Origin: Reclinomonas americana ATCC 50394
Lineage: Eukaryota
DNA length: 45,263 bases
Direction: 5' to 3'
NCBI GenBank assembly: GCA_048213135.1
Contig: PS015137.1
Location: forward strand, 93,373-138,635
Shown here: positions 8,901-45,197 of the stretch, piece by piece
How positions within the stretch are numbered: the first letter of the stretch is position 1
Layout: each line of letters begins with the position of its first letter
Position numbers and translations under genes: made by a program
Notes under the pieces: model-generated
The model's input: the letters and a program-made list of their open reading frames with translations, nothing else
What the model was told of the DNA's origin: nothing
The model's database searches: none

Positions 8901-10750
8901 GTGGTTGCCGGTCGGCATCCGAAAGCTGCTAAACCTGCTTCTCAACCGCGCAAATCGAAAGTCTCGTGGTTGTTGGCATCTGAAAGCACCTCTTCGGCGG
9001 TGGGGTGGAGAGGTTGTGGCCAACCACCTCATGGCACCTGTGCGACGGAAAGGGTGCATACCCATCACATTTGCACTCTTGATGTACTTTTACGGTGACT
9101 TGGCCCGCAACTCCATATCGTACTTTAAGTGCACGGCAGTGGGCGACTCGCACGTCATGGTGCTGTCGCCGAGCATTGCTTGCTACACTGGAGAGTTGCG
9201 TCAAATAAGCATTTATCGTCATTAATATGTCAAACTCATTTGCTCCGTGGCATGCGGACTGCAGATGGAATCGCTTCGTGGCCTTGTTTGCCATGACGCT
9301 AGCCTTCGTCATTGTTGCACCCATCGCAATCATTGTCTGCATGTGGCGGTGGAAACGCCAGAGAGTGCTGCTGAGTAAGGTGCATCAGCTCGATTGATTG
9401 TGCGTGACAAGGGTTGCAGGTGAATTCGAATTGACCTGATTTGCAACTGTGCAGTCGTGGGCCTTTGGCATCTTTTACTTGCACTTTCGAGACCAATACT
9501 ATTGGTTCTACGGTGAGTGAACATGGGTGGGAGGGGAGTATCATACCTCTCTGGCGCTCACTCATTCGACACACCTCGCAGGCTATCAGCAGGCGCGTCG
9601 ACTCATTCTCACGGCACTCTGGATTCTCCTGATAGCCAACAGCAGCATCGAGATTATGTTTCTCGTGCTGTGGCTCTACATGACGCTACTGTTCGCCGTG
9701 CAGTACTTTGCGGAACCGTACTTGGACGCCAACAATCAGTTGTGCGAGGTGTGTCACCCCTCCATTTAAAAGACAGTGGACGAAGAGCTGACCATTTGTT
9801 TGCGCGTACAGTCGGTAGCGCTGGTGGGTCTGCTCTTCATCACTAGCGTCAACGCCGCTCGAGCACCGAACGAATTCAAGAAAGTCACCGCTATTCTTGT
9901 GGTCTCTCTCCTCTCGGCGTTCATTCTCGCGTGTATGCTCATGTGGACTTGCTCGGCCTCGTGCAAGGCCTGGTGGAAGAATCATCATGCGCGTGAGGTA
10001 ACGGATGGCAAGCGCAATGGTGAACGCGAGTTTGAAGGCGAGAGTGAGAGTCTGCTCGGGAATGTTCTCAGCGACACGGCATACAACGGCTCGTCCGACA
10101 CAGCAGCTGCACGACCGAGTATTGGCCTCAGCCGCAGTCCGCTGCTGTCACTGTCGTCCCCAGCAGCACCACCGCCACCACCGCGGCCCCGTGTCACAAC
10201 AACCACCCTCTCGCCTGTCCAGCCACCAATGGTCATTTCGCTGCTGGCGTCGGCCTCTGCCGCCGCTGCGTCGATGCAGCCACCGCCGTCGACTGGTGCG
10301 TTCACTCACGATAAGATTGTTTTGCATCTTTGTTTTCTCACGCTCGCGGATATAGATGGCAGTGCCGCCACGAGTACTGAGCAGGAGTCGCCGCTGCTGC
10401 GCGGTGACGTGGACGGAGAGGAGAGGCAAGACACCGCCGAGGATAACGACGGAGATTTGTCGTCGGAGTCTGCGCGGCTTGTTGATCGATCAGCGAGGCC
10501 ACTTCGTCGCCCAGTGCCACCTCTTCTCCCGCTCCCGCCGCCGGCGCTGACTGCCCCATTGCTGGCATCAATGTCACCGCGGCGCAGTGTGGATCCATTG
10601 GCTGGCCTCCGAGTCGCCGATGTTCTCGAGACTCCCCGGAGGGAGTCACCACGCACACACCTCGAGGCTGCGCAGATGCGGCAAGTGCGACGAGCATGGA
10701 GAAAGAAGCGCAAGGACGGACGCGAAAAAGACGAAGACAAGTCTGACTAA
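43..10750 (+). CDS. Large multi-exon membrane protein: polymorphic-membrane-protein-like (GGA[I/L/V]...FxxN) beta-helix repeats, Cys-rich region, about 8-9 TM segments, low-complexity cytoplasmic tail; 5' end lies upstream of the window
   Basis: About 18 exons join in phase through GT-AG introns (e.g. ~43-261, 913-1856, 3504-3641, 4183-4311, 5665-7917, 7976-8630, 8708-9194; last exon ends TAA at 10750). Repeated FxxN and GGGA[LVI] motifs. Cys-rich stretch (CPTG...CGDCAYG...CGACEDG). TM region has motifs typical of protist Pmp-TM proteins (SPSIAC, FGIFYLHFRDQYYW, PYLDANNQLCE). An exon hidden in the gap at 2125-2760 cannot be excluded. Confidence 0.85.
480..905. repeat. Intronic pyrimidine-rich low-complexity tract (CTT/CCT)n
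   Basis: Direct reading; lies inside intron 262-912. Confidence 0.9.
2125..2760. other. Assembly gap (N run)
   Basis: Run of n, flanked by (CT)n and TACG-like noisy sequence. Confidence 0.99.
3060..3480. repeat. Diverged intronic minisatellite, about 40-bp units (cacgcacttgtactc...cacacgcagac)
   Basis: Recurring cttgtactc and cagacacg/cagacgcg cores; atatgcagacacgtacaccgaccacgcacttgtactc occurs at both ~3110 and ~3382. Confidence 0.75.
3660..4160. repeat. Intronic (CTT)n/(CCT)n microsatellite with repeated ctccatacccttgttct units
   Basis: Direct reading; inside intron 3642-4182. Confidence 0.9.
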
Positions 10751-10815
10751 CACAGACAACGCGGGTGGGGAGAACGCGCATCACACTAGTATTGTATATT
10801 CCAAGTTAGACTGTT

Positions 10816-13800
10816 TCACGATGGGGAAAGGGTGCTGCTGGCAATGTCGCTGTCCGACGAGTACACCGGTTCGCCGTCCGAGTCAGCAGAGAGGACAGCA
10901 GCGGCCTGCAGAGAGGTGATTAGTGGGAGGGGGGAAAGAGGAGGAAAGAGAGAATAGAAGAAGACAAAGGGGAAGGGTAGAACGAGGGTGGCGAGAGTGG
11001 AGTTTAGTAGAATAGAAAGGCAGGGCAAATCGCAATAACACACTGGAGAGTGGAGAAGGAAAATTGATGGGACTCGGAAGCACGACGACATGATACGAAC
11101 AGTCAGACACACAAACGCGCAAACAGCAGGAAGGCAGTGAGGCCGAACATCGGTACGACTGACGGAGCAGGACGCAGCGACCGCGAAGGGGAGAAGAGAC
11201 AGAGCAGGAGACAGACGCAACAGTTCTTGCGACGGCGACGGCGGCGGCTGAGGGTGCAGGCTTGGCCATCGGTGCCTTCGACACAGCTGTTTTCTTCGGC
11301 GAAGGTGACGACGAGGAGGATGATGAGGAAGAAGAAGAAGAAGAGGACGACGACGAATCGTCGCTGCTCTTCTTCTTTTTCTTCTCCTTCTTGTCCTTCT
11401 TCTCCTTGTCGCCCTTGTCTTTATCCTTCTTCTCCTTCTCGCCCTTGTCTTTTTCGCCCTTGTCCTTGCCCTTCTTATCCTTCACCTCCTTGTCCTTCTG
11501 CTTCTTCTTCTTGCTGTCTTCGACGACTGCAGCTGCTGGCTTCCTCCGGTCAATGGCTGCCGGCGCGGCACTAGAGGTCGCGCCGCGGCCCGTCACCACG
11601 ACGGCACCGGTCTGCGCCGCTCGACACTCAGTAAGATAAGAAGGCAGCGCTACACATACAATGATGGTGCTCGACGTAACTCCGGCAGCAGCTCCAGCTC
11701 TCCGTGGTCGACTGCGAAGACGGAAACCGTCGCTACCGTCATCTTCGTCGTCAGAGGGTGCCGTGGCACCACGCTGCACTGCGGTCTCCAGCGAGTGCAA
11801 CCACTGCTGCTGGGCCAGTTGACGTGCCATCTCTCGCACACGGTTCCGCAAGCGAGCCAGCTCGCCTTTCTGAGCCTGCACACACACACAAACAAACAAA
11901 CAAACATGGTGAGCGCCAAGCAGGTTCACAGTTTTACAAAAAATGGGTGTGTGAAACTGGCGACAATAGTGCAGTTTCCATGGCGTCCAGGGGAACACGA
12001 ATGACCAGCCGCCTTTCGAGTCTGGAGATCTCGCGCTGCACGGCAGCGACCTCGTCGGCCATCGCAGCACCGCTGGTATCTCCACCGTCCACCGAGGCGC
12101 GCAATCTGAGAAGAGCAAGCGGTGAAAAAGGGGGAACGGGGAGAAGGGGGAGAAGGGGGAGAAGAGGGAGAAGGGGGAGAAGGGGGAGAAGGGGGAGGAA
12201 GGGAGAGAAGGGAGAGAAGGGAGAGAAGGAGGAAAGGGGGAAAGGGGGAGAAGGGGGAGAAGGAGGAGAAGGCGGAGAAGGGGGATGCGGGAGAAGGGGC
12301 AGGGAAGGGGGATGCGGGGAGAAGGGGAGAAGGGGAAAAAGGGGGAAAGGAAAGAGCAGGTGATAGGAGAGAGAAAATGGAGAGGGAGGGAAATAGAGAG
12401 GGAGAGAAACACGGGTACGGAGGGGAAAAGAGAAAGTAGATTCGACGAGGGAGGGCAAGAAAAAGGGAAGGGAGAAGAGGGAGGGAGAACAAATTAGGAA
12501 ACGGGGAGAGAAACAGGAGCGTTTGTTGCGTTTTGTTGAGCGCCGCCACAATCGACTTCTCCTAACCAATCTCTCACCCTCTATCTCTTCCCTTCTTTCC
12601 CTTGTTCTTCTCTCTCTCTCCCCGCACCTCCTCAGAATCAGCTCACGCTGCTTGTGCGCCTTGTCGGTGGCACTCAGCGACGGCTTCTCCACCGAGTGCG
12701 AACTCTGGAGAATCTTCTGCGCACGCTCCTCGGCAAACTTGTTCTCCAACTCGATGCGCCGCAGCCGCTGCTCGAATTGCTCCACATGCAAGTACTCGCC
12801 CACCGTGGCGTTTGTCGATACTTGTGCCATTCGCTCGAGCACACTCAGCGTCGCGCGAGAGGCCCTGGCAGACTGCGCAGGTGGCGACATAATGTATGTG
12901 AGTGAGTGAGTGGCTGTCGCATAGTAGCACAGTAGTGCGCGCATACCGGGGGTCTCTGGTGTGGGGCCGAAGAAGGTCGCGCGAGTGGTGGCGGCGGTGC
13001 TGCTGCTGCTGCCGCTGTGGTGCTCGTGACTCTCGTCTGCGCCTCGTCTTGTTTCAGGTGAAGAGCACTGCGGACGATGTGGTCCCACTGTCGCTCCACC
13101 AACTGCTGTGAGAGCTCCTCCCGCTGATGTTGCAGAACGGCCAGCTGTCGTCGGAGTTCGGGAGTGAAATCCACGGCCAGTTCGTGTTTCGTTGCCTCGA
13201 TGCGCATCTCCAGATCGAGAATTTCGGCACGCAGAAGCTCCAGCTCCTCCGACGGCTGCGATCCGGCATGCTGCACAGCAGCTTTCAGTCTGCACCGACC
13301 ACGAATGAGTGAGCGGCAAGCGGAGAGATCTCACACTCCGGCCACGTGCTCGACGTAATCAACTGTCGTGTCATCTTCCGTCGTCGTTCATGAGCCGCAC
13401 GGTCGCGCCGCTCGGAGCGTTTGCTGAACGAGTCCTCACTGACGTGACCGCTGCTGCTCGGTGGACCTGCGAGAACCTCATGCAGCGGGACCACAGACTG
13501 CGCGTGAAGCGGCGTGAGACTCACACACAGAGAGACAGAGAGAGAGAGAGAAATGACCGACCTCGCTGATGCGTTGCTCGTTCCTAATCGAAAACTCGTC
13601 ACCATCAGTGAAAAATGCATTCCACAAGAAGTGCAGGGAGGCGCAACTCCTTTCCCCGACGCTCCGACTCCAGACGCTGCAGTCGACCCTCGAGTTGCAG
13701 AAATGCGTGAGACGGCAGCTCTCGATGTTCACTGCCGATTCCGCGAATGAGTTGTGCTTTCGCTTGAACAACAGAAGACACGTTGAACGCAACGGAGCAT

Positions 13801-15529
13801 ACCCTCCTGCAGCGGCGACCGTCTGCTCCGCACCACTACAGCACAACATAGTCAGCAACTGCGGCACGTATGCTTTCCACGCAGAGGACGCCACACCTCG
13901 CTCCACCGGCTTGCATGGATTGGAGTAGAGCCGCAACGTGACCGTCGTCGGGCTGGAATTCCTGCAGCCTGGAGGCGACAAGCTGTGAGTTTCATGATCG
14001 TCTGAAAGAAGGCGAGTTGGTGAGACAGCGCAACTGTGACAACACGCGCTTGCGGTGCTTGCGAGCGAGGCGCTCGCGCCGTTCGTTCCACTTGAAGAAC
14101 TTGTCTTCCTGCACATGTCGCGAATGATTCAGCTGGGAAAAAGCCGATTACAAGCGCACGCTTTTCCCCCTCCTTCCCCCTTACACACCGCACTCTCCGC
14201 CTTGACGTGCGCACGGTACTCTGCAGGCGGCGGCGGCGCACGCAGCAACTTGGCTTGCTCCTGCTCCTCGTGACGTTTCCGAGCCTCTTCTGATCGCTCC
14301 TGCCTCTTTCGCACGTCACTCGACATGCGCTGGACGAGAACCCTGGCGAGAAAACAGAGCACGCAAATGAGCAATGAAAGGCAATCGGCTCCCAACAAGA
14401 CCTCCTCTCGCAACTGCACATCGTCGGGCCGCAGTCCTCGAGAGCGCGACGAGTGGCGCCCACCGCTGTCGGCGCGTGGCGCCGCCGACGAGCGATTCAC
14501 AGATCCACTGCGCGCCATGGACCGCGCCGAATCGTGATCCTTCTTCCTCTTGTCCTTCTTTTGCGGCAGCTTCCGATCGGGCGACATGGAGTTGGCGAGG
14601 CGAGTGATCTTGGGCGGTGAGTTGAGCACCTCTAGCTGCGCACGCGCGCGCTTCTCCTGCGCGGGCTTGGCCAAGCCGTCCATGTACTTTTTCTGTGAGC
14701 CAGCCGAGCGACGCTGCGCCGAGGTGGAGCGCCGGAAATAGGAGGCGCTGGTGGCGGCCAATTCGCTGGCACGCAGCGGTCGTTCAGGATCACTGTCCGT
14801 GTCCACATCAACCTGCAGCCACGCAGGTCGCGGACCGCCAACCGCTGGAGCTCCCAGTGGGTGCGACGGAGCACTCGGGCCTCCCCGCAGCGGAGAGGAA
14901 GCCGGACGCAGTGCTTCGACAGTGGCGGCGCTGGCCGTGAATGTGCTGATGCGACCGCCCGACACTGCGCACCCGAGTAGGGCGACGGATGAGAGAGAGA
15001 ATGGGGGAACGGAGTGAGAGAGGAGAGACACAACACCAACCGTGACTGCCCGAGGCCGAGGGCGAAGAGCTGCGACGCGAGAGAGGCCGACCGAGACGCT
15101 TGGCCTTGGGCGCGATCACCGAGTCGGGCATGTACGAGACCATGCGTTGCAGGAGGGTCTCCAGTGGCAACTAACCAGCGCGAGATGTGAGTGCATGCGT
15201 GGACAGAGCAGAGCGCACGCAAAGACGAAACATTGAGGTCGGCAGTCATCAGGTCGCCACCGTCGGGGAAGTGCAAGACAAAGTCGGGTCGTTGTTTCGA
15301 TTTGTGTTGCGCCACGACGCTCTCGTAGGGTTGGAGAACAAAGTTGGAGAACTCGCGGTCCACCGCGGGGTCGATGACGTTGGTGGCTGGGAGGGGAAGG
15401 GGGGGAAGGGGGAGAAGGGGGGAGAAGGGGGGAGGAGGGGGAGAAGGGGGGGAAGGGAGGAAAGGGTGAGGGGGAGAAAGGGGAAGGGGTGAGGAGAAGG
15501 AGAGACAGACATAAGGAGAGAGAGAGAGA

Positions 15530-15619
<90 letters not shown>

Positions 15620-15639
15620 NNNNNNNNNNNNNNNNNNNN

Positions 15640-15676
<37 letters not shown>

Positions 15677-15989
15677 GAGAGTGAGAGTGAGCGTGTGATC
15701 GATCTCGAAACTCAACGTCGAAACGCTGCATTTGGGTTGCGTGTGGTGGCGATCTGAGGGCCAGGCAGCTCATCAAAGCTGCGCAGAGGGCGGCCTGTGG
15801 CGATATGCACAAACACACACACAGAGAGAGAAAAAGAGAGAGTGAGCGTTCACATGCATTCTCTCTCCCTCCGTGCGTGTGCGTAACGAGGAAGCTGACT
15901 CTCGCTGTGAGCAAGGTGGGCAGTGAGCGTAGAGTGGGGAGATGAGAGGGAGAGAGCGAGAGAGAAGCGAACCTCAGTCGTCGTTCCAT
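10816..15989 (-). CDS. Multi-exon protein of unknown function with coiled-coil segments and a Lys/Asp-rich plus poly-Ser C-terminal region
   Basis: ATG at 15989 (MERRLSESQLPRRPLRSFDELPGPQ...). About 16 exons join in phase (PTNVIDPAVDREFSNF; LPLETLLQRM; EELELLRAEILDLEMRIEATK; FEQRLRRIELENK; KKKKQKDKEVKDKK...). The frame of the last two exons is ambiguous (stop at 10883 giving ...CCPLC, or at 10816). No family recognised. Confidence 0.7.
12121..12500. repeat. Intronic purine-rich low-complexity tract (ggggagaag-type 9-bp units on +)
   Basis: Direct reading. Confidence 0.85.
15390..15690. repeat. Intronic GA-rich tract and (GA)n microsatellite with a 20-N break
   Basis: Direct reading. Confidence 0.9.
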
Positions 15990-17031: not shown

Positions 17032-18359
17032 ATGTTTGCCCCCCCTCGCAAGTCGCAGCCTCGCCAGTCCACCTCCAAGTCCTCATCGCGCAACGGAAGC
17101 GATGCAGGCTCGATGTCCTCGTCCGCTCACGACGCCACACACTGGACACTGACCTACCGCAAGCCGTCCGATTTCGAGCGCGGCTCACTCAACAAGCACG
17201 CCAATAGCGAGTACAATGAGGTTTGTTTTGTCGATAAGTGTGTTGTCTGTCTGTGTGGAATATTTTTTCCGTGGTCTCAAGTCAGTTTCCCGTTTTTTTT
17301 TCTTGTTTGTTTGTTTGTTCCATGCAGTATCAACGCCGTCAAGCGCGTCTGGCCCAGCGCTCGCCCTTCTCCAAGCAGCACGACTCGATGTACACGTTCC
17401 GCACCGATCGTCCCAAGTCGGCACAGCGCCCCGATGCCAGTTGCGTCTCTCTCTCACTCACTGTCTCTCTTCGCCACACCGTGCTGACTGGCGTTGTGCG
17501 TTGTGTAGATCACCCTGAGCCGACCAAGCCGCTGGTGAGCGACTTTGACATCAAGACGCACTCGCGACGAGTGAGCAAGGCGGTGGATGTGGCGCGTCGG
17601 CGATCGGAGAAGCACCGCAGCAAGAAGGCCGGCAACTCGCGTGCCACGGCCACGGTGGTCTCCACCTCTGGCCGCACGGTGTTTGAGCGTCTGTTCCACG
17701 ATGCGCAGCAGCGCGAGGTTGCACTGGAGACGCGCCGCAATGAGGAGATGCAGAGACTCGAGGTTTGTGCCGCACACAACACACACAGTGTCATGCGTGC
17801 TTGATGCTGACTTGCGCGGTGGTGTGTAGGATGACTTGGAGTCGACGTGCTCGGAGTACCTCGCCACACACTCGCGCCCGCGCACGCCTCGGTCGCGCGC
17901 CGCCACACCCATGAGCATGTACGGTCCCGAGGATACCATGTCGATGGTGTCGGGCAAGTCGGCGGTGTCGCAGCGAACACGCTCGCGCACGCCGGTGAGC
18001 ATGTACGGCGCCCTCAGTGAGTGCTACTCGCTGGCCAGCCTCGGCTCCTACTACGACATGAACGCGACGACGCTGCGTCGCATTGTGCCTCGGTCGGACT
18101 ACTTGCGCCACGAGACGTTTGTCGATCGGTTGCTGTCGGAGCGCAAGGGTGCGTGGTCAGCAACACCGCGGTTCTCCCGTGTCCTCCCAACCGCCTGCCG
18201 CGGCAACTGAGAGGAGCGCTCGTCGCTCGCAACCTCTTAGTTTTTTCCTCTGTTTTTTTCTCCCTCTCTATCTCTCTCCATACAAACGCCACTCTACCGA
18301 TATCCCTCTCGGTGTGGCGTGCAGCTGTAGAACAACTAACATACGCATGCAAGTTTTGA
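17032..18359 (+). CDS. Five-exon Ser/Arg-rich protein of unknown function
   Basis: MFAPPRKSQPRQSTS...; exons 17032-17220, 17328-17439, 17509-17763, 17830-18148 and 18325-18359 join in phase; contains a TVFERLFHDA motif and a short coiled coil. An AG acceptor just before the ATG suggests a further upstream exon. Confidence 0.7.
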
Positions 18360-18558
18360 GTTTGGATGGCGCCCTGGGCGGCGCGCAATGTACCACTACG
18401 AATAGATAATCGAGATGTGTGGGGAGACAAGGGAGAGTGAGGCAAGGGAGGAAACAAACAAACCAAGGGTTGCGCTGAGCGGCTGTACAGCAAACGTATG
18501 CCCTTCGCGAGTGTCCTGGTCAGGTGTGTCGGGATAGGATTTCTCCGCAAACCACGCC

Positions 18559-29789: not shown

Positions 29790-30703
29790 CTACGCTGGCA
29801 AGCTGCGTGCCAAATCCCAAAAATGCTCCACACTGTGATCCGCCAGGTACTTGCGCGCCACCGACTCGTTGGGGAACAGCTGAAGGCGGAAATTGACAAA
29901 GTTCTGCTTGGGGAGGACGCCCTGCACGCGCGCGAGAGAGAGAGAGAGAAAGTGAAGTGAGGGACCGCTTGTCGACGATATCCTGTCACCCTACTACTGC
30001 CTACCGCACTCACCGTCCACACATGCACACACTTGTTGGCCGCCTTCTTGTCCTCCGAGTCCGACTCCCCATCGGCCGCTCCATCCTCGTCACCCATATT
30101 GGCGTTCCAGTCAATGCGTGTCAGCATGAGGCGCTCGAACTTGCGGAGTGCCTTCAGACCTGTGTGCCACATGTGGTGAGCGAAGGCGCAGGGAATGCGA
30201 AGAGAGAGTGGTCGCACGCAACTGCCTTCAACAATGACCAAATTCAACACATCCGACAACAGACCACAGCCCGTCAGATACAACTGCTTGGCGTTCAAGT
30301 CAATCTTCTTCTGATTCAGCTTGCTCTTCAGGTTGGTAATTCTGCATGTGAACAAAAGTGCGGCAGTGTCAGCGATGATCTCGATGGTAGAAGGCAAGTT
30401 GCGGCCCATGGACGACCACTCACTCATTCACTCACTCACACACACAGATACACACAAAGTCATTCACTCACTCTCTCACTCACCCACTCACTCACCCACT
30501 AATTCGCTCACTCGCTCACTGACACACTCACTCGCTCACTCACTGACACACACACACTCTCTCTCACAGAGAGAGTGAGAGACACACACACACCCACTCA
30601 CTCACTCTGTCTCACTCACTTACTCACTAATTCGCTCACCCACTCACTCTCACTCACTCACCCACCCACTCATTCACTGGCTCATTCACTGGCTCATTCA
30701 CTG

Positions 30704-30771: not shown

Positions 30772-33099
30772 GAGAGAAAGAAATACACTCACTCATTCAT
30801 TCACTTACACTCACTAATTCTCCACACATTTAACGAAACACACACTTGAACCTGCACACGATCTCCCCTTCCGATCCCCTTCCCCTATTCCCTTCCCCCC
30901 TTTGCAACGCACCTGTAGACAGCCACTTGAATCTGCACATCAGTACCCGCCGTAATCTTCTTCTTGAACTTGTCATGCCGCTGCTCGTCGGTCAGCTTGC
31001 GGTCGGCATTCGCCTTTTCGTGCGCCTCCTTGCGCTCCGCCATTTGCTTGCGCACTTCCATTTCCACCTTTGTTGGGTCCTTGGTGGCGCTGCCAGCCAG
31101 CGCCTTCATCATGTTGGAGAGCTTGACTGGAACATAAAAGGAGAGAGAGCGAGAAAATGAGTCATTACTTTCTCCTCGCGCACTCGCCACATTGTACGCA
31201 CGTTTCGGCGGCGGCGGAGCAATGAGACCCATGCGAATCTGTTCCTGCTTTTCCTTTTCACGCGCCATCCTGGTCTGCGTGCGCAACTTTCTCCGCTCCT
31301 GCAAGGGTAGGCGAGATACATCAGCAATCGAGTGAAACAGAGTGCAGCACGCCGACACGCACCTTTGGCGTCAACATCAGCGGAATCGGTGCTGCCGGCT
31401 TGTCCTCACAAGGCGGCTGCACCGGCACGGGATGCTCCACGTAAAATGCAATCTTTTTCGGTCGCACCTCAAAGTTGCCGTCGGTGACACACTCGTAGGT
31501 CGGGCGTGTCAGCAGCGGAAGGTCCCACCACTCCACGTCGGGCACTACCACGGGTTCCGCAACGGGCTTGGCTGCAGTCTGCACTCTGAATCGTAAGCAC
31601 AATAGGCCCCCCTTGTCACATGCAGCGCCACATCACGAGGCACGCAACTCCCAGTTCCACTCGAGCCCTGGCAATCTCACCACGTCGTTCACGCTCCGCG
31701 TCAAGCTGAACAAAACGAGTCAGACGAGGCGGAAAAATGGGAGAGAGTAAATGCAACACCGCAAAACGCTACCTGCTGTCGCTCCTCCTCCGCCTTGGTC
31801 ACAATGGAGCCGGGCTCCACAAACTCAAATGTGCCCCTCTTCTTGCGGAAGGCACGCTTCACCGACATGCTCGGATCGAAAAAGTGCTTCTCGCGGAAAT
31901 CAGGGAGTTTCTCCAGCGGCAGCGCGGACGTGGCGGTGGTGGTGGCTGTGGTGGTGGCCGCTGCTGCAAAGGGCATGCCGGCCACAGAGGCGGCCACAGC
32001 CGTCACCATGTCGGCAACCTTGGCGCTCATGGCGCTCGGCGGCAGCATCATGTCGTCCTCCTTTTGGTTGACACGGAGACTCTTGACGGGTTTCACCGGG
32101 ATGGCCATGACGTCGTGTAGTGGTGCGGGTGCCGTGGCGTTGGCTTTCTGCGAAATACAAAAAGGAAGGATGAGGAGGTGGGAGGAGGGCAGAAGAAGAA
32201 GATAAGAGCGTGACGCAACGAGGGCATTCAGCTGCGCCTGGATGAGGATCTTGCTCTTCATGACTTCCTCCTGCTGCTGTCGTTCGCGGGCCAGGGCGAT
32301 GCGCTGGGCGACTGTGGAAGAGGGAGAGGGAGGAAAGCGGGAAAGGGGAATTGAGGGGGAAGGGGAAAGGAAGGATGAGTGGGGGAAAGAGGGGGAAAGA
32401 GGGGGAAGGGGGAAGGGGGAAGTGAGTGGGGGAAAGAGGGGGAGGGAAGGGGGAGGAAGGGGGAATTGAGGGGGAACGGGGAAGGAAGGGGGAGGAGAGA
32501 GGAAGAGAGTGTGGGGAGAAAGGGGGAGAAAGGGGAGAGAGGGGAGAAAGGGGAGAAAGGGGAGAAAGGGGAGAAAGGGGAGAAAGGGGAGAAAGGGGAG
32601 GAAAAGGGAAAAGGGAGAAGAGAAGGGGGATGAGAGGGGGATGGTGAAAGGGGAAGAGAAGGGTGGAAGAGCAAGGGGAAAGGAGAGGGGAAGCGAAGGG
32701 AGGAGAGCAAGGGAAGGGGGAGGAAAGGGGGAAAAAAGGGTAAGAGACGAAATGAGAACGAGACAAGAAGGAAGAAAGCAACATGAGAAGAAAGAGAACG
32801 AGATGACAAGAGAAGAGAGGAGAGCGGGGAAGAGGCCTATCTGCCTCTGCTCGTTGCAACCGACACTCTCTGCCTCCCTTCCCACCAAACACGCAACTCT
32901 CTGGCGTCAACGCCACACTCGACGGCGCACTTGACACTGGCGCCACCATCGACACAGGCCTATTCAGCATTGGCGGAGGCACAGACGACGAATGCAATGA
33001 CGCCGATGAAGGAGGTGGAGGAGGAGGTGCAGGCTTGCTCTGAGCGACCTGCGCAGCGAGCTTGGCAATCTCGGCTTGCAGGCGTTGTTGAGTGGGCTA

Positions 33100-34372: not shown

Positions 34373-34665
34373 CCTCCCTCCCTCTCTCATTTGGTGTCAC
34401 ATTTGTCTCAGTTGTCTCTCACTCACACACACACGCAACATCAGTAACCGGCGCGCTTGGTGCCTGCTGTGTAGGCTCACTCCATCGCGACCTGAAAGAC
34501 ACACAGACAGACAAAGAGAGAGAAAGAGGCAAGTGTGAGCGCGACATTTCGACCTTGTTCTTCGCGTGTTTGTTTGTTTGTGTTTTGACGCAACGTTCGT
34601 TGGCGTTTCTGATCGTTGCCGCTGTCGCCGCGGTCGTCAGAGTGATCGCGCGGTCGCTTTGACAT
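29790..34665 (-). CDS. PRP3: U4/U6 snRNP protein Prp3 (pre-mRNA splicing factor), 12 exons
   Basis: Conserved Prp3 motifs: TFEFVEPG, PDVEWWD, YVEHPVPVQPP, MLTPKERRKLR...QEQIRMGLIAPPPPK-LKLSNMMKAL...DPTKVE, NAKQLYLTG, IVEGSLKALRKFERLMLTRIDW, KCVHVWTG, EHFWDLA. Proposed ATG 34665 (MSKRPRDH...RTSRWS). Upstream exons 34665-34595, 34491-34440, 33096-32898 and 32311-32220 join in phase across the gap. Stop TAG at 29790. Confidence 0.93.
30418..30820. repeat. Intronic (CACT)n/(CT)n/(CA)n microsatellite mosaic
   Basis: Direct reading. Confidence 0.9.
32320..32830. repeat. Intronic purine-rich low-complexity tract (ggggagaaa units on +)
   Basis: Direct reading. Confidence 0.85.
33280..34070. other. 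Assembly gap (N run) inside a PRP3 intron
   Basis: Run of n. Confidence 0.99.
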
Positions 34666-34990
34666 TTTGTGAGTGGTGTGTAAGAACGTCGCAGGACACG
34701 GTTTGTGTGGTGCGACGAACGCAAGCAGCACTCAGTTGCTGTGTGTGCTCTTGTGGCTGACTTCCGCGTTGACGAGAACATCCACTTGCAGACGTGATTT
34801 TTATCGGCGGTAAATGCATTGATTGCAAAAAAACACACAATGCCAGTGTTGAAAAATGCAGCGACAGTGGCCTCTGCAGCGCACATGCCACTGCTCTGCC
34901 TACACACACGCGCGCATATTGCGTACAAAGTGCAATTGCTGCAAGTGCGATCTTCTGAGAATGTCCTGAACGTCGCAAATCAGCTCTCTC
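34666..34990. promoter_or_regulatory. Putative short bidirectional promoter between PRP3 (-) and an unknown gene (+)
   Basis: 325 bp between inferred ATGs 34665 and 34991, with an AT-rich core (taaatgcattgattgcaaaaaaa). Positional inference. Confidence 0.45.
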
Positions 34991-35164: not shown

Positions 35165-37974
35165 TGAGTGAGTGAGTGTGTGAGAGAGAGAGAGTGAGAG
35201 TGAGCGAATGTGAGAGAGAGAGAGAGAGTAATCGAGTGTCCGGAAAGATATCAGCCTCACAATACACTCACTCTCTCTCTCTCCTTCTCCGCTCTTCTCT
35301 CTCTCAGTGAGGCCGCTGGTGCATCACCTGTGCCTGCGCCCTCCAGTGCGCTCTCTGCGCGACGGCCGCCTGCACTGGAGAGCATTGTGGCGGCGGCCTC
35401 TTCTGCTGCGGCGCCCGCGAGCAACCCGCGATCGTCGTTGACTGTGACACCAGCGACTCCGCAGCAGCAACAGCAGTCGGGTGCTCCGGCGAGTCAGCGG
35501 TTACGGAGTGGGTTGGTGAGTTGCTGGGAGTCAGTTAGAGAGCTTCTCAGGGCCCTCTCTGTTTGCTTTTGGGGCCCGTTGTCACTCATTATGGCCATCA
35601 CCTCATGCTCGTTGTGGTCCTCTGCTGTTCTTCACAAGGCACTCGCTTTTGCTCATTCCGGGCCCTCTCTGTTTGCGGTCCTTTTCTCTCTCCTCTTGCT
35701 TGTTGTGGTTCGCACTGTTGACGGTCCTGGATTCGTTACACGAGGCCCTCATGCTGTTCATCCAGAGCCCTCTTTGTTGCGGTCCTTGATTCTTTCACAA
35801 GGACCTCCCTTTGCTCATTCGGGCCCTCTCTGTTGCTCATTTCTCTCCTCTTGCTTGACGTGGTCCTTGATCCTTTCACAAGGACCTCCCTTTGCTCATT
35901 CTGGCCCTCTCTGATGCGGCTCTTGATTTATTCACTCCGGGCCCTCTCTGTTTGCGGTCCTTTTTCTCTCCTCTTGCTCGTTGTGGTCCTCACTGTTGGT
36001 GGTCCTGGATTCATTGTACGAGGCCCTCCTGTTGCTCACTTCTCTCCTCCTGGTTGACGTGGTCCTTGATTGATTGCACGAGGCCCTCCCTTTGCTCATT
36101 CGGGCCCTCTCTGTTGACGGCCCTTGATCTATTGCACGAGGCCCTCCTGCTGCTCATTCCGGGCCCTCTCTGTTGGCGATGCGTCGTTGAGGCCCGTTGT
36201 CACTCTTTCTGGCCCACTCCTCTTGCTATTTGTGGTCCTCTGTTGACGGTCCTTTATTTATCATGCGGTCCTCCTGCTGCTCCGGGCCCGCTTTGTTCAT
36301 TGGGCCCTCTCTGCTATCTCATCTTGATTCATTCCTGTTGTTCATCTCGGTCCTTGATTCTATCACAAGGCCCTTCTCTGTGCTCACTCCTCCCTTCCCA
36401 TCTCCGCCTCTCAGGACCGCCCCTCCCAACAAGGCCCCTCGCCCACCGGCACTCCAGGCTCCGCCGCCGCCTCTGCCGCCAGTGCCGCCGCGGCTGCCGT
36501 CGGCGCCAGCGCCGGAACCGCCCGTCCTCGCTCGGGCATTGCGTTGGCGGGTCTCACTGGGGCGCCGCCGGCCGCCGCCGCCGGTGCATCGTCATCCGAT
36601 CGCGGCAGTGTGCAGTCGACGGGCGGGCCGTCGCCCACCAGCCTGCAACCGTCACCGCGACCAGGCAATTTGCCTTCGCCTCGGCAGACTGGTTCTTCGT
36701 CGTCCGCTGCCGCGCAGGCCGCCAACGGCAACGCCGCCGCGTCGGGGGCTGGCACGTCGCCGTCGCGGCCGAAATCCGGCGTCTTTGGCAACGCGCTCGC
36801 CACGCTTCTGGCGCAGCAGTCGGCTCGCGACAGTGTCTCCAGTGCCGGCGGCTCCTCCGACGGTGGTGGCAGTGGCAGTGGAGGTGGTGGTGGAGGCCCT
36901 CCGAATGCAAGGAGCTCCATGTTGCGTGACCCGGTTGTGTGTGAGCGGTGCGGACTGGTGAAATCATTGACACACGCACGATGCAGGCGTGTGTCAGGTG
37001 CGACTCCAGGATTGGCTGCTCTCGCCGACCGCCTATCCTCAGCTCGGAGGAATAGCATGACAATGTCGAGTGACACTCCAGAAAGAGGTGCGGTTGTCGC
37101 GATGTCTGCACTGCGTGACCTGCATGCTCATTTCTCTCGCGCAGGCACATCACGATCGCGAGAGAATGTTGCGTGTCCTCCTTCCCCCCCTTTTGTGTGT
37201 TTTATTTCAGCAAGAAGAAGAAGAAGAACAAGAACAAGAAGAAGAAGAACAACAACAACAAGAAGAAGAAGAAGAAGAAGAAGAAGAAGATGGAGAAGGT
37301 GGAGAACAAGAACAAGAAAAAGGAGGAAGAGGTGGTAAAGGGAGGAGGAGGAGGAGAAGAAGAAGAACAAGAAGAAGGAGAAGGAGAAGAAGAAGAAGAA
37401 GAAGAAGAAGAACAAGAACAAGAACAAGAACAAGAAGGAGAGGGAGAAGGAGGAGGAGGAAGAAGAAGAACGAGAACAAGAAGGACAAGAAGAACAAACA
37501 CAGGAATAGAAGAAGAGGAAGAAGATGAAGATCAAGACAAGCTATAACAGCAACCGTGTACATGCAGTCTCGCGCGTCAGTGCGCAGCGAGGACACGGTG
37601 CTGCAGACGTTCCAGCAGGATTTCGACGACACATTTTCGCGGCTGCGAGAGCGTCTCGAGGACCGGTTAGTGGCGTTGCGTTCCATGAAGAGCACGCTGC
37701 TCGATGAGGTCGGCCCGGTGGAGACAAGGTGCGTTCGTGCTGTGATTGTTGTGCGCGCGACAGCATGCTTATCAATTGTGTGCGCGTGCGCAGAGTGGAC
37801 TCGCTCGTGCAGCGGCTGGAGAATTTCGGCGATCGGTCGGCCCGCAAGGTGGAGAGTATCAAGGAGGCTGCGAAGGCGGAGATTGACAGGCAGGTCGCAA
37901 ATTACACCGCCTCACGTGCTGCAGCGGCAGCGGCATCGTCAGCTGCACCACCGGCTGGCGTGGCGGCGTCGTAA
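34991..37974 (+). CDS. Seven-exon Ala/Ser/Pro-rich protein of unknown function with a C-terminal coiled coil
   Basis: Exons 34991-35043, 35308-35515, 36415-36920, 36987-37087, 37145-37167, 37568-37728 and 37794-37974 join in phase (MSILKRATAAVRQRASV-SEAAG...; FQQDFDDTFSRLRERLEDRL; VDSLVQRLENFG). Ends TAA. Confidence 0.72.
35545..36400. repeat. Diverged intronic minisatellite (ggccctct / gctcattc / ggtccttgat cores, about 60-bp period)
   Basis: ggtccttgat.ctttcacaaggacctccctttgctcattc occurs at both ~35781 and ~35862, with many partial copies. Confidence 0.8.
37210..37540. repeat. Intronic (AAG)n/(AAC)n microsatellite
   Basis: Direct reading; inside intron 37168-37567. Confidence 0.92.
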
Positions 37975-39369: not shown

Positions 39370-40239
39370 TCAGAGCAACATACACGCACTGGAGCGCGTG
39401 GTACTCGACGACGACACACTTGTCGCATCTGCACCGTCTGTCATCTGCACGCGCGTACTGGCGGTGAGCACCATGGCATGAAACGGAGAAGAGCAAAGAG
39501 ATGTCAGCACGCCACTCCATAAATCACTCACCTGCGCCCTCGCGCGCAACATCTCCAACTCTAACCGCTGGCGCGTCTGCACCTCCTTGGCCAGCATGTC
39601 TTCGTATCGTAATCTCTCGATTTCCTGCCCCAAAACAACCATCAGCAACACCTTCACACCTTTCCCCCCTTCTTTCCCCTTTTTCTCCCCCACCTTCTCC
39701 CTCGCCAACCGATCCAACTGCGTCTTCAGCTCCTCCTTCTCCTGCTGAATGCGCACCATCATCGTCATCAACGAGGTGGTCATGTCAGCCGACGCGCCAC
39801 CACCACCACCACCAACTCCCATCTCCGGCGAGTGGGTGAGGTCGGCCTCGTTTCCCTGCAGGCCGACATGGATGCTCGGCGCCGACGGCGACAAGCACGA
39901 CCACTCGGACATGGGCGCCTCCGACTGCGACGGCGAGTGAACGGGCGGTGGTGGTGATGCGTTGGTCGACTGCCCAAGCGTGTGCGCAATGTCACGCATC
40001 CGATCCTCCGGCAGCGACAGCACGGGAACCGGTGCGGTGGTTGCGCGCATGGCCACCGGCGGGGTGACACGTTCGACCGGCGATGGGGACGTGGAGCGCG
40101 TGAGATGCGACGAGGCCGTTGACGTGTCGTCGTCGTCGGTGTGGGCGGGTGCAACACGAGCCGGAGACGGTTTGCCGCTGGCTAATGGTGGCTTGCTAGC
40201 AGTCGCTCTGCTGGGTGGCTCGTTTGGCAGGAGGTCGGC

Positions 40240-40287
<48 letters not shown>

Positions 40288-40305
40288 GAGGGAGGGAGAG
40301 TGAGT

Positions 40306-40346
<41 letters not shown>

Positions 40347-40370
40347 NNNNNNNNNNNNNNNNNNNNGACG

Positions 40371-40410
<40 letters not shown>

Positions 40411-43400
40411 GAGACAGAGAGAGGGGGAGAGTGAGTGAGTGAGAGAGAAAGAGGCGAGACAGAGAGAAGTGAGACAGAGAGAAGTGTGACAGGGAGCAGT
40501 GAGACAGGGAGCAGTGAGACAGAGAGAAGTGGGACAGAGAGAAAGAGAGGGAGAGACAGAGAGAAGTGAGGCAGAGAGAAGTGTGACAGAGAGAGAGAGA
40601 GACAGAGAGGGAGAAAGGGAGACAGAGAGAAGTGAGACAGAGAGAAGTGAGACAGAGAGAAATGAGATAGAGAGAGAAAGAGACAGAGAGAGAGAGAGAG
40701 AGAGAAATAAAAGCGAGACTCGCGCACGAGTGACCGTGATCGTCGCGACGCAACGATTCACACTCTGCCGGGACGGAGAGAACAGCTCCGCTTGCGCCAC
40801 CGCCCGATCACGCTCAAACTTGGCGTCAAGCGACAACGGAGCGGGTGGTTCCCTGGTCGCCTTGGCCGGCACAGGCTCTGCTACCACCGGCGGCGGCGGC
40901 GGCGACGGCTCCCTCGGCTCCGGGGACGGCTTGCGCAGGATGCCCTTGATGGGCGGCGTCACCGTCTCGTTCGAACGCGGCGTAAACTCACTGCCGCCCT
41001 CGCTCTCCGCTCCGTCCGTCTCCGATCCCACATCACTCGTACCGCTCTGCGACGACGCGTCGGGGAACGACACACGGCGAGCACGACCGCGTCGTTGCTG
41101 TCGTCGTTGTCGTCGCTCCTCGTGCGTCATCACTGGCGGCGCGGCGGCGGTGGCAGTGCCCACACCGCCGACAATCGCATCTGCTGGCAGCTGTCGCCGC
41201 CGCACACCGCTGCCGCTGCTGCCACTGCCGCGTTCGAGTGACCGAGCGCTGCTGCTACCGCCACTGCTGCCACCGGCCTTGTCACCGCCTCCACCACCAC
41301 CACCGCTTCGGCTGCCGGTGACCTTGTCGGACTCGTCGGGCGCCAGATCGGTCCACCGACGCACATACAGCTCTGGAGGCTTGACTTTTTCGTCGGGGTG
41401 TCCCATGACCTGCAGGTGGCGTTTTTCAGCATCATCCGAAAGGAGGGAGGGCAGGAGACAGACAGCGTACCTTGAAGAGGATGCCACTCTCGTACAAGTA
41501 GTCAATGTACGAGCGATCCACATTGTCGACGGTGAGGAGGTCGCAGTACTGGAAACGGGCATTGGCGCCGGACGAGTGCTGCGCATGTGGATGTGTAAGA
41601 AGGCAACCTTCTTCATCAAAAGAGAGAGAAGAGGGAATCATGCGCCACCTCCGTTGATCGATCAAAGTCCTCCATGTAGAAGCGGTAGGTAATGTACACA
41701 TCCTTCGAATCCATCTGACTGAGTCCACGCACGGCCAACACGCGCACTTCGTAGTTCACGCATTTGCCAATGAGCTCCTCCGGTTCTTCCACCATGTCGA
41801 CGGCGTCGGGGTCGCCAAAGTTGTCCACCGGAACACTGCGACGAGGTATAAGAGGAAAGAAGGAGGGAGTGCAACACGAGCGAAGCCAAGGACGCAACAC
41901 TTCCACATGGAGAGCGCCAGCGTCGCGTGTGCCGGTCATGATGGGGAACCTGGAGGAGGTGGTGAGCCAAGGGCGAGACGAAAATGCGGTTGACATATGT
42001 CTCACCAGTCCTTCAAGTCCATGTTGTAGGCCAGCGGTCGCAGGTACACCATGCACGCACCAATCTCCTGGTGATCGGGCGGGTCGTAGAATGGGTCCTT
42101 GTCGAGAGGCAAGTGGAACGACTGCCAAAAATCAAGTGAGGGAATGATGGAGACAGCATGATCCTCTCCAAAGAGACCAAACCTGCTGCATGTCCAGCGC
42201 CTGCAACACCTCCTCGTAGATCTCCTGCATGAGGAAGAGACGATTTTCGAGTTTTTCAGGCGTCCAATACGCCTTGGTGCCATTCCAGTGTCTCCGAACT
42301 TCCACGCACACACCAGACTGGAAGGGATAAAGTCAACCAAATGTTCACCGACATTGCCAACTCTCAGAGGCACGCAACGAGATCGTCAGCCGCGGCCGAC
42401 GACGCGCCACTGATGATGGACGATGCGGTGGCTCGCATTTGGCACTCAAACGAGACCGGGCGGCGCAGCTCTTGTGCAAGCGCATTGGCCTCGGCCACTC
42501 GTGGAAGAAGCTGTCCACACACGTAAGCACTCCTGTTGCTCTCACCAATTAAAACAAAAATGCACTTACAAACCTGCAAGAGCCGCTCCTCCGCCATTTT
42601 CCTTGACAATCGCTGCTTCTCAAGCGACGCATCCTCACGTAGTCGCTTCTCCGTCTCCTTTTTCAAGTTCTCCTCCAGCTGCCTGTTCTTCTCCTCCAAT
42701 TGCCGCTGCTGCTCGGCAAACTGGCGCTTCAGCTCCGTCTGTGCGTGAAGAACAAGTTGGTGTCAACACAAGAGAGGTAAGAGTGCCATTCAATGACACA
42801 CCTCCGTCTCCTCATTCCGCTGCGCTCTGGCCTCGGCCAGTCTGTGTTCGTAGTCGCGACGAATCTACAATAATTGCAAGTGAGCGTGTGTGTGCGCCCA
42901 GAGTGTGTGCAATGCGTCTTCCCGAGTCACGCACCTCCTCCTCTTTGCGTTTGATTTCGAGTTCTTGAGCGGCCTTGGAGCGCGCCAATTCCACCTCCAG
43001 TTCTGCTCTATTTTTCTCCCGCTCGTGTGCCAGCTTGCGCTCCACCTCTTCGGGGTCCACAAAGCCTTGTTCACGAAGCAGTTCCTGGAGAAGAGAGATT
43101 TCAGGAAGGTGGAAGAGGAAGGGGGGTGGCGGAGAAAGAAGGAGGTGATCAACAGCAAGAAGAGTGGAGAGAGAGAGAGAGAGAGTGCAATGCAAGACAT
43201 TATGACGGAGAAACGCGCAGTGGGAAACAACAAAAAGCGGTAATCCACAGCAAGAAGAAGGAGCGAACGACAAGCGGAGAGAGAGGAGTGTAACGCAAGA
43301 GAGGACGGCTGCCAGAACGCGCTGATGTAGTGATAAACGATAATGAAGGGACAGAATTGACATGTGGTGAAGGAAGAGAGAGAGAGATAGAGAAGGAGTG

Positions 43401-43482: not shown

Positions 43483-43519
<37 letters not shown>

Positions 43520-45197
43520 AAGAGAGGAGGGAGTGCAATGCAAGCGATAATGGCTGCCAGAACGCGCTGTGGGCAACTGAGGGACTGACAACAGTTGCGG
43601 GACGGAAACAACAAGCTGAGAGAGAGAGAGAGAGAGAGAGAGGAATGCACTGCAAGAACGCGCTGCGCGCAGCTGAGAAATTGATATACAATAATTAAGG
43701 GACGGAAACAACAAGCGGGGAGAGAGAGAGAGAGAGAGAAAGGATGGCCGCGAGTACGCGTTGAGGGCAACAGAGGGTGTGTTCAACACGAAGTAAGGGA
43801 CGAAACGACGTGTTGTTGAGAGAGAGAGAGACAAAGGTATTGGAAAAAAGCAGGGACGGGAGGCTGCACGTACCTTTTGCGCAAAATCCCAATCGAGTGC
43901 GTTCATATCGGATCCGCCGCGTTCCTGTTTTCGTTGCGCCACCTCCAGAGGATGCACAAAGCGGAACACGTGCGACGTGCCGATAATCACTCGATCGCCC
44001 TGTGTTTTGAAGAATGTGAGCGAAGAAGGGGGAAACAAGGGCTACGCAGTGGGTGACGCAACATGTCGGAGCTTGACTTTGCCCTCCGACTGCTTGCCGT
44101 TGACAAAGGTCTTGAAGCGTTCGTCCTTGGCAATGTGCTTCATGTACACCGTGTCGCCTGCAGAGACGAGGAACTTGAGAAGGAGATCTCTCCGTGTCAC
44201 CTTGCCCACCTCGCCTCGCCTCCCACGCACCATTAAAGATAAACTTGACATGCCGTCTGGCCACCGACACGCCACTGAGATCCACGTCGGCCTTTCTCTT
44301 GCCCGACGTCTTGCCAAACACCGTGATGCCCTCTTGCAAAAAATACACGAGACTCTCCGACATTAGTGGATCCTCGCAGAGATTGACGAGGTGCGGCGTT
44401 GTTTTCACATCGGCGCCGACCGGAATATTAAGGCCAGCGTCCTGCAGCGGCGGCGCCGCGTGAGTCACCTACCCACACACACGCCTCTCACATCTCCCTG
44501 AGCACGCACCGACAAGGCCTGCTCTCTCGTCTCATTCAGCTTCCGCGTCTGTAATCTCCTCTCCTCCGTGGTCATGCGCAGTTGCTCAATAATGGCCTCG
44601 CTCTGCGCCAGTTGATCGCGCAAAGCCTGCACCTCGTCATCCGTGCCCGCCTCGCCAGGTGTCTCACCATTGGTCCCTGCCGTCACGCCTCTGTGTCAGT
44701 CAAGGCTTTTCTCATCCCACCCTTACCCTCCCACACTTACCGAGTGCCGATCGCAGCCGGTCGACTTCCTCGCGCAGCTCTCGAATGAGCTTGGCTTGCG
44801 GATCCTCGTTCTTGACGGCACGGTTGCGGATGCGCTTGGCCGAGTCGGCGTAGCGCAGCGTCGACAACGACTCCTCGTAGTTGACCGACGCCGGCGACAC
44901 GGCGGCAATCATAATGGTGCGCGAGTTGCCGCCGAGTGACTCCTTGAGCAGCCAGGTCAGCACCGAGTCGCGGTACGGCACCACCATCTTCTTGCCACCG
45001 GCGCCGACTCGGTGCGACGAATTGTGCACCAGGGCGTTGATGACTTTGCCGAGGGTGGTAAGCGACTGGTTGATGGCGCAGCCCTCTTTCAGGCGGTCGC
45101 CCGTGGCGCCGCTGGCGTTCGCGCGCTCCGAGCCGGCCAGGTCGACCAGGTGGATGCGGGAGATGGTGCTGTGGCTTTTCTTGACGACGGGGTCGGT
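39370..45197 (-). CDS. Kinesin-3 family motor (3' part): end of motor domain, FHA domain, coiled coils, low-complexity tail, C-terminal CaaX; 5' end beyond the window
   Basis: [73 protein letters not shown] region [20 protein letters not shown]...[49 protein letters not shown]. About 18 exons in phase, ending ...[11 protein letters not shown]. Subfamily not assignable by eye. Confidence 0.93.
40243..40710. repeat. Intronic (GA)n microsatellite and gagacagagagaagt-type minisatellite with a 20-N break
   Basis: Direct reading. Confidence 0.9.
43160..43860. repeat. Diverged tandem repeat (about 120-bp period) in a kinesin intron
   Basis: Recurring ggctgccagaacg (~43307, ~43415, ~43552), aagggacggaaacaacaagc and (GA)n blocks. 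Confidence 0.7.

Follow-up and report, generated by a model that had tools for sequence, protein, structure and literature searches.

A candidate second class of GT-AG splice donors, displaced by one base, in a 45-kb stretch of Reclinomonas americana DNA

Introduction

The cut site at the 5' end of an intron is thought to be set first by pairing of U1 small nuclear RNA (snRNA) in one fixed register, and departures from it, by a shift or a bulge, are known only from humans, where they are rare exceptions. The stretch of Reclinomonas americana ATCC 50394 DNA analysed here (contig PS015137.1, positions 93,373 to 138,635 of the forward strand) raises the question of whether a displaced donor can be a common one. 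This stretch, referred to below as the window, comprises 45,263 bases with a G+C content of ∼57% and six runs of N, and its eukaryotic host has numerous short introns across it. A first-pass annotation of the window listed 21 donors that read like ordinary ones with an extra T, and described them as a displaced AG/GT consensus read in a shifted or bulged register and forming a mainstream intron class. On the sequence evidence presented here, a real and discrete second class of GT-AG donors is present in the window, H/GUUGCGU (H denotes any base other than G, and the slash marks the exon-intron boundary). It stands beside an ordinary class of G/GUGCGU, G/GUGAGU, G/GUACGU and G/GUUUGU, and donors of both classes are present within the same genes.

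Two classes of splice donor

The curated list comprises 60 introns, 24 with shifted donors, 35 with ordinary donors and one with an odd donor, and omits the WD40 arrays (18.7-29.6 and 38.4-39.4 kb) because these are not reliably traceable. Donors were assigned to the shifted class by a base other than G at +5 (G in 0/24) together with G at +6 (24/24). The class accounts for about two in five of the curated introns (24/60), with shares of 4/16 in a kinesin-3 gene, 4/9 in the traced part of a Prp3 gene and 9/18 in a gene designated gene C. The earlier estimate of roughly 20 in 70 introns is about right, as the present count would come near it if the arrays hold about ten ordinary introns. Motif and strand are correct at all 21 of the sites first listed, which carry GTTGCG in 18 cases (with T as the next base in 15), GTTACG in two (11680 and 15887) and GTTGAG in one (15716); three further donors of the shifted kind were found at 7691 (plus strand), 13793 and 15231 (both minus strand).

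The two classes differ in the last base of the exon, which played no role in the class definition. G occupies this position at 32 of 35 ordinary donors and at none of the 24 shifted donors (Fisher p = 1.4e-13), and G at -1 is already absent at the 19 sense copies of GTTGCGT, a result that is independent of the gene models. The first-pass annotation had noted the lack of G and about nine A at this position, and a recount at its 21 sites gives A 9, T 6, C 6 and G 0. The composition at -1 of all shifted donors (A10 C7 T7 G0) resembles that at -2 of ordinary donors (A21 C8 T4 G2), and exon bases -3 to -1 of the shifted donors, scored under the ordinary profile, yield a log-likelihood of -97.7 when moved by one base vs -145.6 when unmoved. 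On the intron side, T at +7 in 20/24 shifted donors mirrors T at +6 in 24/35 ordinary donors, and the rarer shifted words GTTACGT, GTTGAGT and GTTTCGT correspond to GTACGT, GTGAGT and GTTCGT with the identical extra T.

Word counts over the whole window point the same way. GTTGCG occurs 48 times vs 34.0 expected, a count reached by one of 100 shuffles, and GTTGCGT occurs 22 times vs 8.0 expected under a third-order Markov model (z = 5.0). On a strand map prepared for this analysis, which needs only the strand of each gene, 19 of the GTTGCGT copies are sense and three antisense (two-sided binomial probability ∼0.0009 by our own arithmetic), whereas GTTGCG followed by A, C or G is sense in 12 cases and antisense in 14. 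The sense bias of GTTGCGT indicates that the word acts as a signal. The 19 sense copies are accounted for by 15 of the sites first listed, two of the further donors (7691 and 13793) and two copies in plain coding sequence (8525 and 29173). GTGCGT occurs 68 times vs 38.7 expected, an excess that overstates the ordinary donor class because many copies, including most of those at 18000-29600 on the plus strand, are not donors and encode Val-Arg of the WD40 motif TVRVW.

The strand map and the intron lists below refer to the following genes:
~0.2-10.5 kb, plus strand: beta-helix repeat gene with a membrane-spanning C-terminus
15,989-10,816, minus strand: gene C, no known domains
from ~17.0 kb, plus strand: gene leading into tandem WD40 arrays (up to 29.6 kb)
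~34.7-29.8 kb, minus strand: Prp3 gene, interrupted by an N gap
36.4-37.3 kb, plus strand: low-complexity gene
39.4-38.4 kb, minus strand: WD40 stretch
45.2-39.9 kb, minus strand: kinesin-3 gene, truncated by the window end

Beyond the donor, shifted and ordinary introns are alike. All 23 shifted introns with a placed acceptor start with GT and end with AG, the median length is 66 nt vs 67.5 nt for ordinary introns, and base composition is equal. A branch-like motif, [CT]T[CGA]A[CT] at 15-29 nt from the 3' end, is found in 13/18 short shifted and 25/30 ordinary introns; its form (CTSAY) and its distance from the 3' end are alike in both classes.

Two known sources of a second intron class were considered and rejected. 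Shifted introns are no more similar to one another than to ordinary introns (mean local similarity scores of 13.07 within the shifted class, 13.29 within the ordinary class and 13.41 between the classes), which argues against an introner family or copies of a mobile element. U12-type introns, which have the donor (A/G)TATCCTT and the branch site TCCTTAAC, likewise form a second class coexisting with a major one, but their signals are unlike the GTTGCGT donor and the CTSAY branch motif found here, and none of the 24 shifted donors resembles a U12 donor.

A gene finder written for this analysis was run with zero, one or two donor profiles. With zero or one it chose 0-1 GTTGCG donors and only 1-8 GTGCGT donors and was too weak to decide. 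With two profiles it chose 21 shifted-type donors and reached a score of 1145 vs 1061 without the second class, a comparison that is partly circular.

Support from protein alignments

Junctions in the Prp3 and kinesin-3 genes were placed with our own protein-to-DNA aligner, which joins any GT to any AG at a flat intron cost, treats split codons exactly and contains no donor profile. Homologues of at least 400 residues (134 for Prp3) and at least 1000 residues (63 for kinesin-3) were aligned. The shifted introns of the Prp3 gene, all on the minus strand, are:
30160..30222, minus strand: shifted intron a/GTTGCGTG, 63 nt, phase 1, in the Prp3 C-terminal domain; 134/134 homologues
31579..31648, minus strand: shifted intron a/GTTGCGTG, 70 nt; join ..ARVELG/TAAKPVAEP.. 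open
32148..32219, minus strand: shifted intron c/GTTGCGTC, 72 nt, in frame and stop-free; chosen in 6/68 spanning alignments
32312..32897, minus strand: shifted intron a/GTTGCGTG, 586 nt, phase 1 after Glu; intron position common to a relative
34433..34439, minus strand: putative shifted donor t/GTTGCGTG; by its motif; runs into the N gap at 33280-34070, acceptor not placeable
34492..34594, minus strand: putative shifted intron c/GTTGCGTC, 103 nt, likely to follow the first Prp3 coding exon; contexts, reading by eye

The conserved junction IVEG-S-LKA, which had been cited in favour of the donor at 30222, is recovered with every one of the 134 homologues, a level of agreement matched by the ordinary Prp3 introns at 31362 (134), 31201 (134), 30912 (129) and 30013 (130). 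The alignment across the junction is ungapped (LVIVEG-S-LKALRKFERLM vs LVIVEG-S-QKSMMKFDKLM in P0122, the closest homologue), and the split Ser codon is conserved. Farther upstream, splicing of both 32897 to 32312 and 32219 to 32148 yields the best score against P0122 (114), vs 101 when the intron at 32219 is retained and 104 for the first path of the aligner; excision of the 32219 intron closes a gap of 20 residues relative to P0122. The donor at 31648 lies in a poorly conserved region and is as ambiguous as was first stated, being chosen in 14/126 spanning alignments with two different acceptors. Read by eye, the intron at 34594 has GCTCAC as a branch-like motif near its 3' end, together with a pyrimidine run and CAG, and the join reads ..KRQRT-SRWSEP... 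The short frame at 34440-34670 (minus strand), which starts MSKRPRDH.., probably holds the first Prp3 exons and is separated from the rest by a gap of 791 N.

Some of these positions can be compared with a relative, whose short proteins P0121, P0146 and P0162 match segments of P0122 at 94-98% identity and read on into introns. The relative's intron after ..MAE (phase 1; P0162 and P0146) corresponds to the window site 32897 after ..TPE (phase 1). A second read-through intron is found in P0121, at residues ∼185-215 after ..QAD, where the donor decodes by hand as T/GT(TCN or AGY)GTN, that is, with G at +6, T at +7 and a base other than G at the end of the exon. This decoded donor hints that the relative may also have shifted or bulged donors. 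Among the relative's short fragments, none was found over the position of 30222.

In the kinesin-3 gene the shifted introns are:
44000..44062, minus strand: shifted intron t/GTTGCGTC, 63 nt, FHA region; 58/63 homologues; branch-like GCTCAC 17 nt from the 3' end
42318..42378, minus strand: shifted intron c/GTTGCGTG, 61 nt; donor in 37/63 homologues, 24 to 42318 and 13 to 42299
41836..41898, minus strand: shifted intron t/GTTGCGTC, 63 nt; 4/63 homologues, weak support
40239..40754, minus strand: putative shifted intron c/GTTGCGTC, 516 nt with a 20-N gap inside, kinesin tail; flanking open frames of 294 and 288 codons, phase 1

The join LRH-GDR claimed for the donor at 44062 is borne out by 58 of the 63 homologues, which select 44062 to 44000; the ordinary introns of the same gene, 44509 to 44442 and 44230 to 44158, are selected in 57/63 and 38/63, respectively. 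The pair 42378 to 42318 ranks first among the 17 local GT/AG pairs that leave no stop, with a mean score of 50.2 vs 44.7. The claim that LHVEV-VP supports 41898 stands only weakly: 41898 to 41836 is first of only two stop-free local options (59.0 vs 58.1, with exon skipping at 55.5), and the 51-nt exon before it is skipped in 17/63 alignments. The intron at 40754 is proposed from the motif and the open frames, with no homology support.

Support from open frames

A Pfam search of ten exons of gene C yielded nothing above the cut-offs, and the gene model was therefore built on open frames alone. With 18 introns it forms a single open frame of 992 codons, from ATG at 15,989 to TGA. Shifted-type donors account for nine of these introns (15887 GTTACGC, 15716 GTTGAGT, 15231 GTTTCGT, 14414, 14034, 13793, 13647, 11680 GTTACGT and 11221), and retention of any single one of the introns at 15887, 15716, 15231, 14034, 13793 or 13647 leads to an early stop:
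15795..15887, minus strand: shifted-type intron c/GTTACGCA, 93 nt; retention gives a stop at codon 23
15387..15716, minus strand: shifted-type intron c/GTTGAGTT, 330 nt with a 20-N gap inside; retention gives a stop at codon 38
15159..15231, minus strand: shifted-type intron t/GTTTCGTC, 73 nt, newly added; retention gives a frameshift and a stop at codon 204
14343..14414, minus strand: shifted intron a/GTTGCGAG, 72 nt, in frame and stop-free; branch-like motif, pyrimidine run, CAG; ambiguous
13969..14034, minus strand: shifted intron a/GTTGCGCT, 66 nt; retention gives a stop
13732..13793, minus strand: shifted intron c/GTTGCGTT, 62 nt, newly added; joins 42-nt and 84-nt exons in frame; retention gives stops
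13584..13647, minus strand: shifted intron a/GTTGCGCC, 64 nt; retention gives a frameshift and stops
11612..11680, minus strand: shifted-type intron a/GTTACGTC, 69 nt, in frame and stop-free; frame open either way, motif support only
10906..11221, minus strand: putative last intron t/GTTGCGTC, 316 nt; spliced form gives an acidic Ser/Asp-rich C-terminus to TGA; weak

The acceptor of the intron at 15231 is uncertain, as another in-frame AG is seen by eye 12 nt upstream. At 14414, flagged as ambiguous in the first pass, the frame is indeed open whether the intron is spliced or retained, and retention of the putative last intron at 11221 likewise leaves the frame open for a long stretch. The odd donor of the curated list, GTTTCAC at 11957, lies outside both classes and is uncertain. 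The intron concerned (11876-12004, minus strand, before ..AQKGELARLRN) has no convincing donor, the candidates in phase being cca/GTTTCAC, ctg/GTCATTC and cgt/GTTCCCC.

Shifted introns on the plus strand were placed in three genes:
7691..7756, plus strand: shifted intron a/GTTGCGTA, 66 nt, beta-helix gene, newly added; two-class gene finder only; branch-like motif 16 nt from the 3' end
9195..9264, plus strand: shifted intron a/GTTGCGTC, 70 nt, beta-helix gene; a 281-codon frame is joined to ..CYTG-E-WNRFVALFAM..
17440..17508, plus strand: shifted intron a/GTTGCGTC, 69 nt, in the N-terminal region of the gene that begins near 17.0 kb; flanking frames of 67 and 97 codons; GCTGAC branch-like
36921..36986, plus strand: putative shifted intron t/GTTGCGTG, 66 nt, low-complexity gene; open flanking frames; TTGAC branch-like motif
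37168..37210, plus strand: putative shifted intron t/GTTGCGTG, 43 nt; pyrimidine run and CAG; weak

Retention of the 70-nt intron at 9195 would shift the frame; the intron at 17440 is in frame, so that the open frame does not demand it. A branch-like motif was sought in the intron at 37168 and none was found. Open frames and the gene finder constitute the basis for 7691, 9195 and 17440, and the motif with open frames that for 34439, 36921 and 37168.

Reading by U1 snRNA and alternative explanations

Pairing between the donors and U1 was derived by hand from AUAC-psi-psi-ACCUG, the 5' end that Tan et al. (2016, PMC4856993) give for U1 in a paper on human sites. An ordinary donor, AG/GUGCGU, pairs at -2, -1, +1, +2, +3 (wobble), +5 and +6. 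H/GUUGCGU forms only two Watson-Crick pairs and a wobble in the ordinary register, and five pairs, or six with A at -1, in a register shifted by +1. In the latter G+1 replaces the exon G, a mismatch falls at U+2, and U+3, G+4, G+6 and U+7 pair like +2, +3, +5 and +6 of an ordinary donor. We consider it somewhat more probable than the converse that a single U1 snRNA reads both classes, the second in the +1 shifted register; that this pairing is the cause of the class is inferred. At ordinary donors the U1 cytosine would pair with the last G of the exon, and at shifted donors the same cytosine would pair with the first G of the intron, with U, G, C, G and U each displaced by one position. The catalytic core (U6, U5 and Prp8) would then cut at the GU one base upstream of the usual cleavage point, because U, not G, occupies the latter, and U6 would have to reach G+6 and U+7 across one extra nucleotide. 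The first-pass annotation took changes in U1/U6 recognition, or a variant snRNA, to be implied; the data do not call for an altered snRNA, since an ordinary U1 5' end would by itself permit the shifted pairing. Of the earlier description of a displaced consensus in a shifted or bulged register, the large class and the displacement stand, with -1 mirroring the ordinary -2, whereas the bulged option fits less well, with G at 0/24.

Several results weigh against the shifted register. Part of the contrast at -1 comes from the 11 of 35 ordinary donors placed by a gene finder that favours G there; the remaining 24, backed by homology or by the frame of gene C, have G in 22 cases. On exon bases the shifted model barely exceeds background (-97.7 vs -101.1), and for about nine of the 24 shifted donors the support consists only of the motif and open frames. 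The relative's donor at the shared position 32897 decodes as A/GTGGNTGG, not GTT. The shifted class is also far more uniform than the ordinary class (20/24 GTTGCG), which is not predicted by a simple shift; this tightness suggests that the extra mismatch is tolerated by the best-pairing word and no other, or could alternatively reflect a U1 in this organism that matches GUGCGU better than standard U1 does. The total absence of G at -1 is not explained by pairing energy alone, because U10 could wobble-pair with G. Finally, H/GUUGCGU with a bulged U has, by hand count, as many pairs as in the shifted register. In that arrangement U1 would pair with G+1 and U+2, the U at +2 or +3 would bulge, and GCGU at +4 to +7 would pair like +3 to +6. 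A bulge at +2/+3 is among the human single-nucleotide bulge registers, several of which have been validated experimentally according to Tan et al. (2016, PMC4856993). Two homology-supported donors on the minus strand with G at -1, g/GTAGCGT at 31772 and g/GTGGCGC at 41648, consist of GT, one base other than T and GCG, and resemble genuine bulge(+3) sites that occur alongside the shifted class. With a bulged U, however, the last base of the exon faces the same U1 cytosine as at ordinary donors and G is expected, whereas it is found at 0/24 vs 32/35. In addition, the inserted base is T at 24/24, which follows from the class definition, and the other three bases are rare, these two donors being the candidates. 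The shifted register is therefore preferred over a bulged U, since G never occurs at -1, and bulging as the explanation for the class is judged unlikely.

The uniformity of the class (20/24 GTTGCG and 20/24 T at +7) would also fit a near-perfect complement in a second U1 snRNA, or in a U1 with a co-evolved 5' end, that pairs with GUUGCGU donors in the ordinary register. Co-evolved U1 5' ends are described in Entamoeba (ACAAAC with GUUUGU) and Mastigamoeba (ACGUAC) in the preprint of Roy and Bowser (2022), but the same preprint gives standard U1 for Thecamonas and Mamiellales, two further lineages whose donors have C at +4, and a variant U1 would also need to drop the preference for G at -1; this explanation appears rather improbable. 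We regard it as very unlikely that the motif is recognised chiefly at a step following U1, through U6, U5 or a protein, with the extra U reflecting tolerance of the catalytic core. G+6 and U+7 could, as we infer, form pairs with the ACAGAG box of U6 if one base bulges out, and non-canonical U6 registers have already been proposed (PMC11162779), but the change at -1 from G to a base other than G would be left unexplained, the exon base being a matter for U1 and U5 and not U6. Least credible is an artefact of gene tracing, in which GTTGCG sites are not splice sites and nearby ordinary GTs are used or cleavage occurs after the G. The introns at 14414, 11680, 32219 and 17440 are in frame and stop-free, so that the frames do not demand them, the gene finder still builds models without the second class, and two sense GTTGCGT copies are plain coding sequence. 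Nevertheless, the exact donors at 30222 and 44062 are picked among all GT..AG pairs by nearly all homologues, six shifted donors are each required for the open frame of gene C, and both the 19:3 strand bias and the missing G depend on gene strand only and not on exon tracing. Cleavage after the G was rejected separately, as with the same acceptor it shifts the frame at 30222 (by reading), and under a shifted acceptor the introns would end in a base of composition G7 A6 T3 C2, which carries no signal.

Relation to known systems and significance

The closest parallel is the human +1 shifted register (Roca and Krainer 2009, as cited in PMC4856993), in which GU is kept at +1/+2 with G at +6, U at +7 and a base other than G at -1, as in ACA/GUCAAGUAU, the test site used in PMC4856993, and in which cleavage occurs at the GU and not at the U1-defined position. 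The window class shares with it the retained GU, the consensus displaced by one base and the non-G at -1. The human bulge +2/+3 register, with 68 predicted sites, or 54 after curation, of 201,541 (PMC4856993, Table 3), resembles the window class in having GUU followed by a displaced consensus, but it would favour G at -1, found here in 0/24. The validated noncanonical registers together are estimated in that paper at 1.5% of 201,541 human sites, and by its figures the nearest human registers comprise < 0.05% of sites. Human +1 shifted sites are thus rare exceptions, whereas the class in the window, known from sequence alone, accounts for 24/60 curated introns, with a tight consensus of its own.

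The preprint of Roy and Bowser (2022) reports donors with C at +4 in Thecamonas, Mamiellales and Mastigamoeba, with standard or co-evolved U1, and shows that a change in the donor can be accompanied by co-evolution of the U1 5' end. The ordinary GTGCGT class of the window is of the same +4 C kind as in the preprint's listing of Thecamonas, Mamiellales, Mastigamoeba and Entamoeba. As presented there, each of those genomes has a single transformed consensus, in contrast to the window, where two words one base out of step occur in the same genes. A search of full-text literature, in which most matches were judged by title and the start of the abstract, returned no account of donors reading GTTGCG, nor of any major intron class based on a shifted register.

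A broader proposal, to which we assign slightly less than an even chance, is that the spliceosome of this lineage routinely reads two registers. U1 would anchor on a G followed by G or U; where the second base is U, the cut would fall one base upstream and U6 would pair across a bulge. A register otherwise known as a rare human exception would in this way routinely define about a third of all introns, perhaps with the aid of an altered U1 5' end, U1-C or Prp8. If true, a third of introns on a displaced signal would constitute a natural experiment on the uncoupling of U1 binding from the choice of cut site by U6, U5 and Prp8, and on how much slack U6 pairing tolerates. There would also be a practical consequence: gene finders with a single donor profile miss shifted introns (our own single-profile runs picked 1 and 0), and annotation would therefore be wrong at roughly every third intron.

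Other features of the window

The closest proteins in large collections are only ∼60-70% identical to those of the window, and the lineage is therefore poorly sampled. An Rfam scan of the window gave no match at gathering scores and, at E <= 1, only low-complexity microRNA-like matches and no snRNA. Metagenome contigs scanned with the Prp3 protein P0122 gave 0/120 confirmed among the matched stretches, and a scan with a kinesin exon gave 80 loci, the best 65% identical, with no close relative.

The beta-helix gene (156-10468, plus strand) contains GGGA-type repeats resembling polymorphic membrane proteins, with several hydrophobic segments at its end. Tandem, near-identical WD40 units extend over 21147-29597 (plus strand) and may represent one gene or several; their linkers carry a recurring donor, cg/GTGTTTCAT, that lies outside both donor classes. 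Gaps of 20 N occur at 25719 and 26969 in these arrays and at 40347 in the array of the other strand. The long introns on the minus strand (12100-12620, 15390-15700, 32310-32830 and 40240-40720) contain CT-rich microsatellites and short C/T-rich direct repeats, and assembly gaps fall within these introns.

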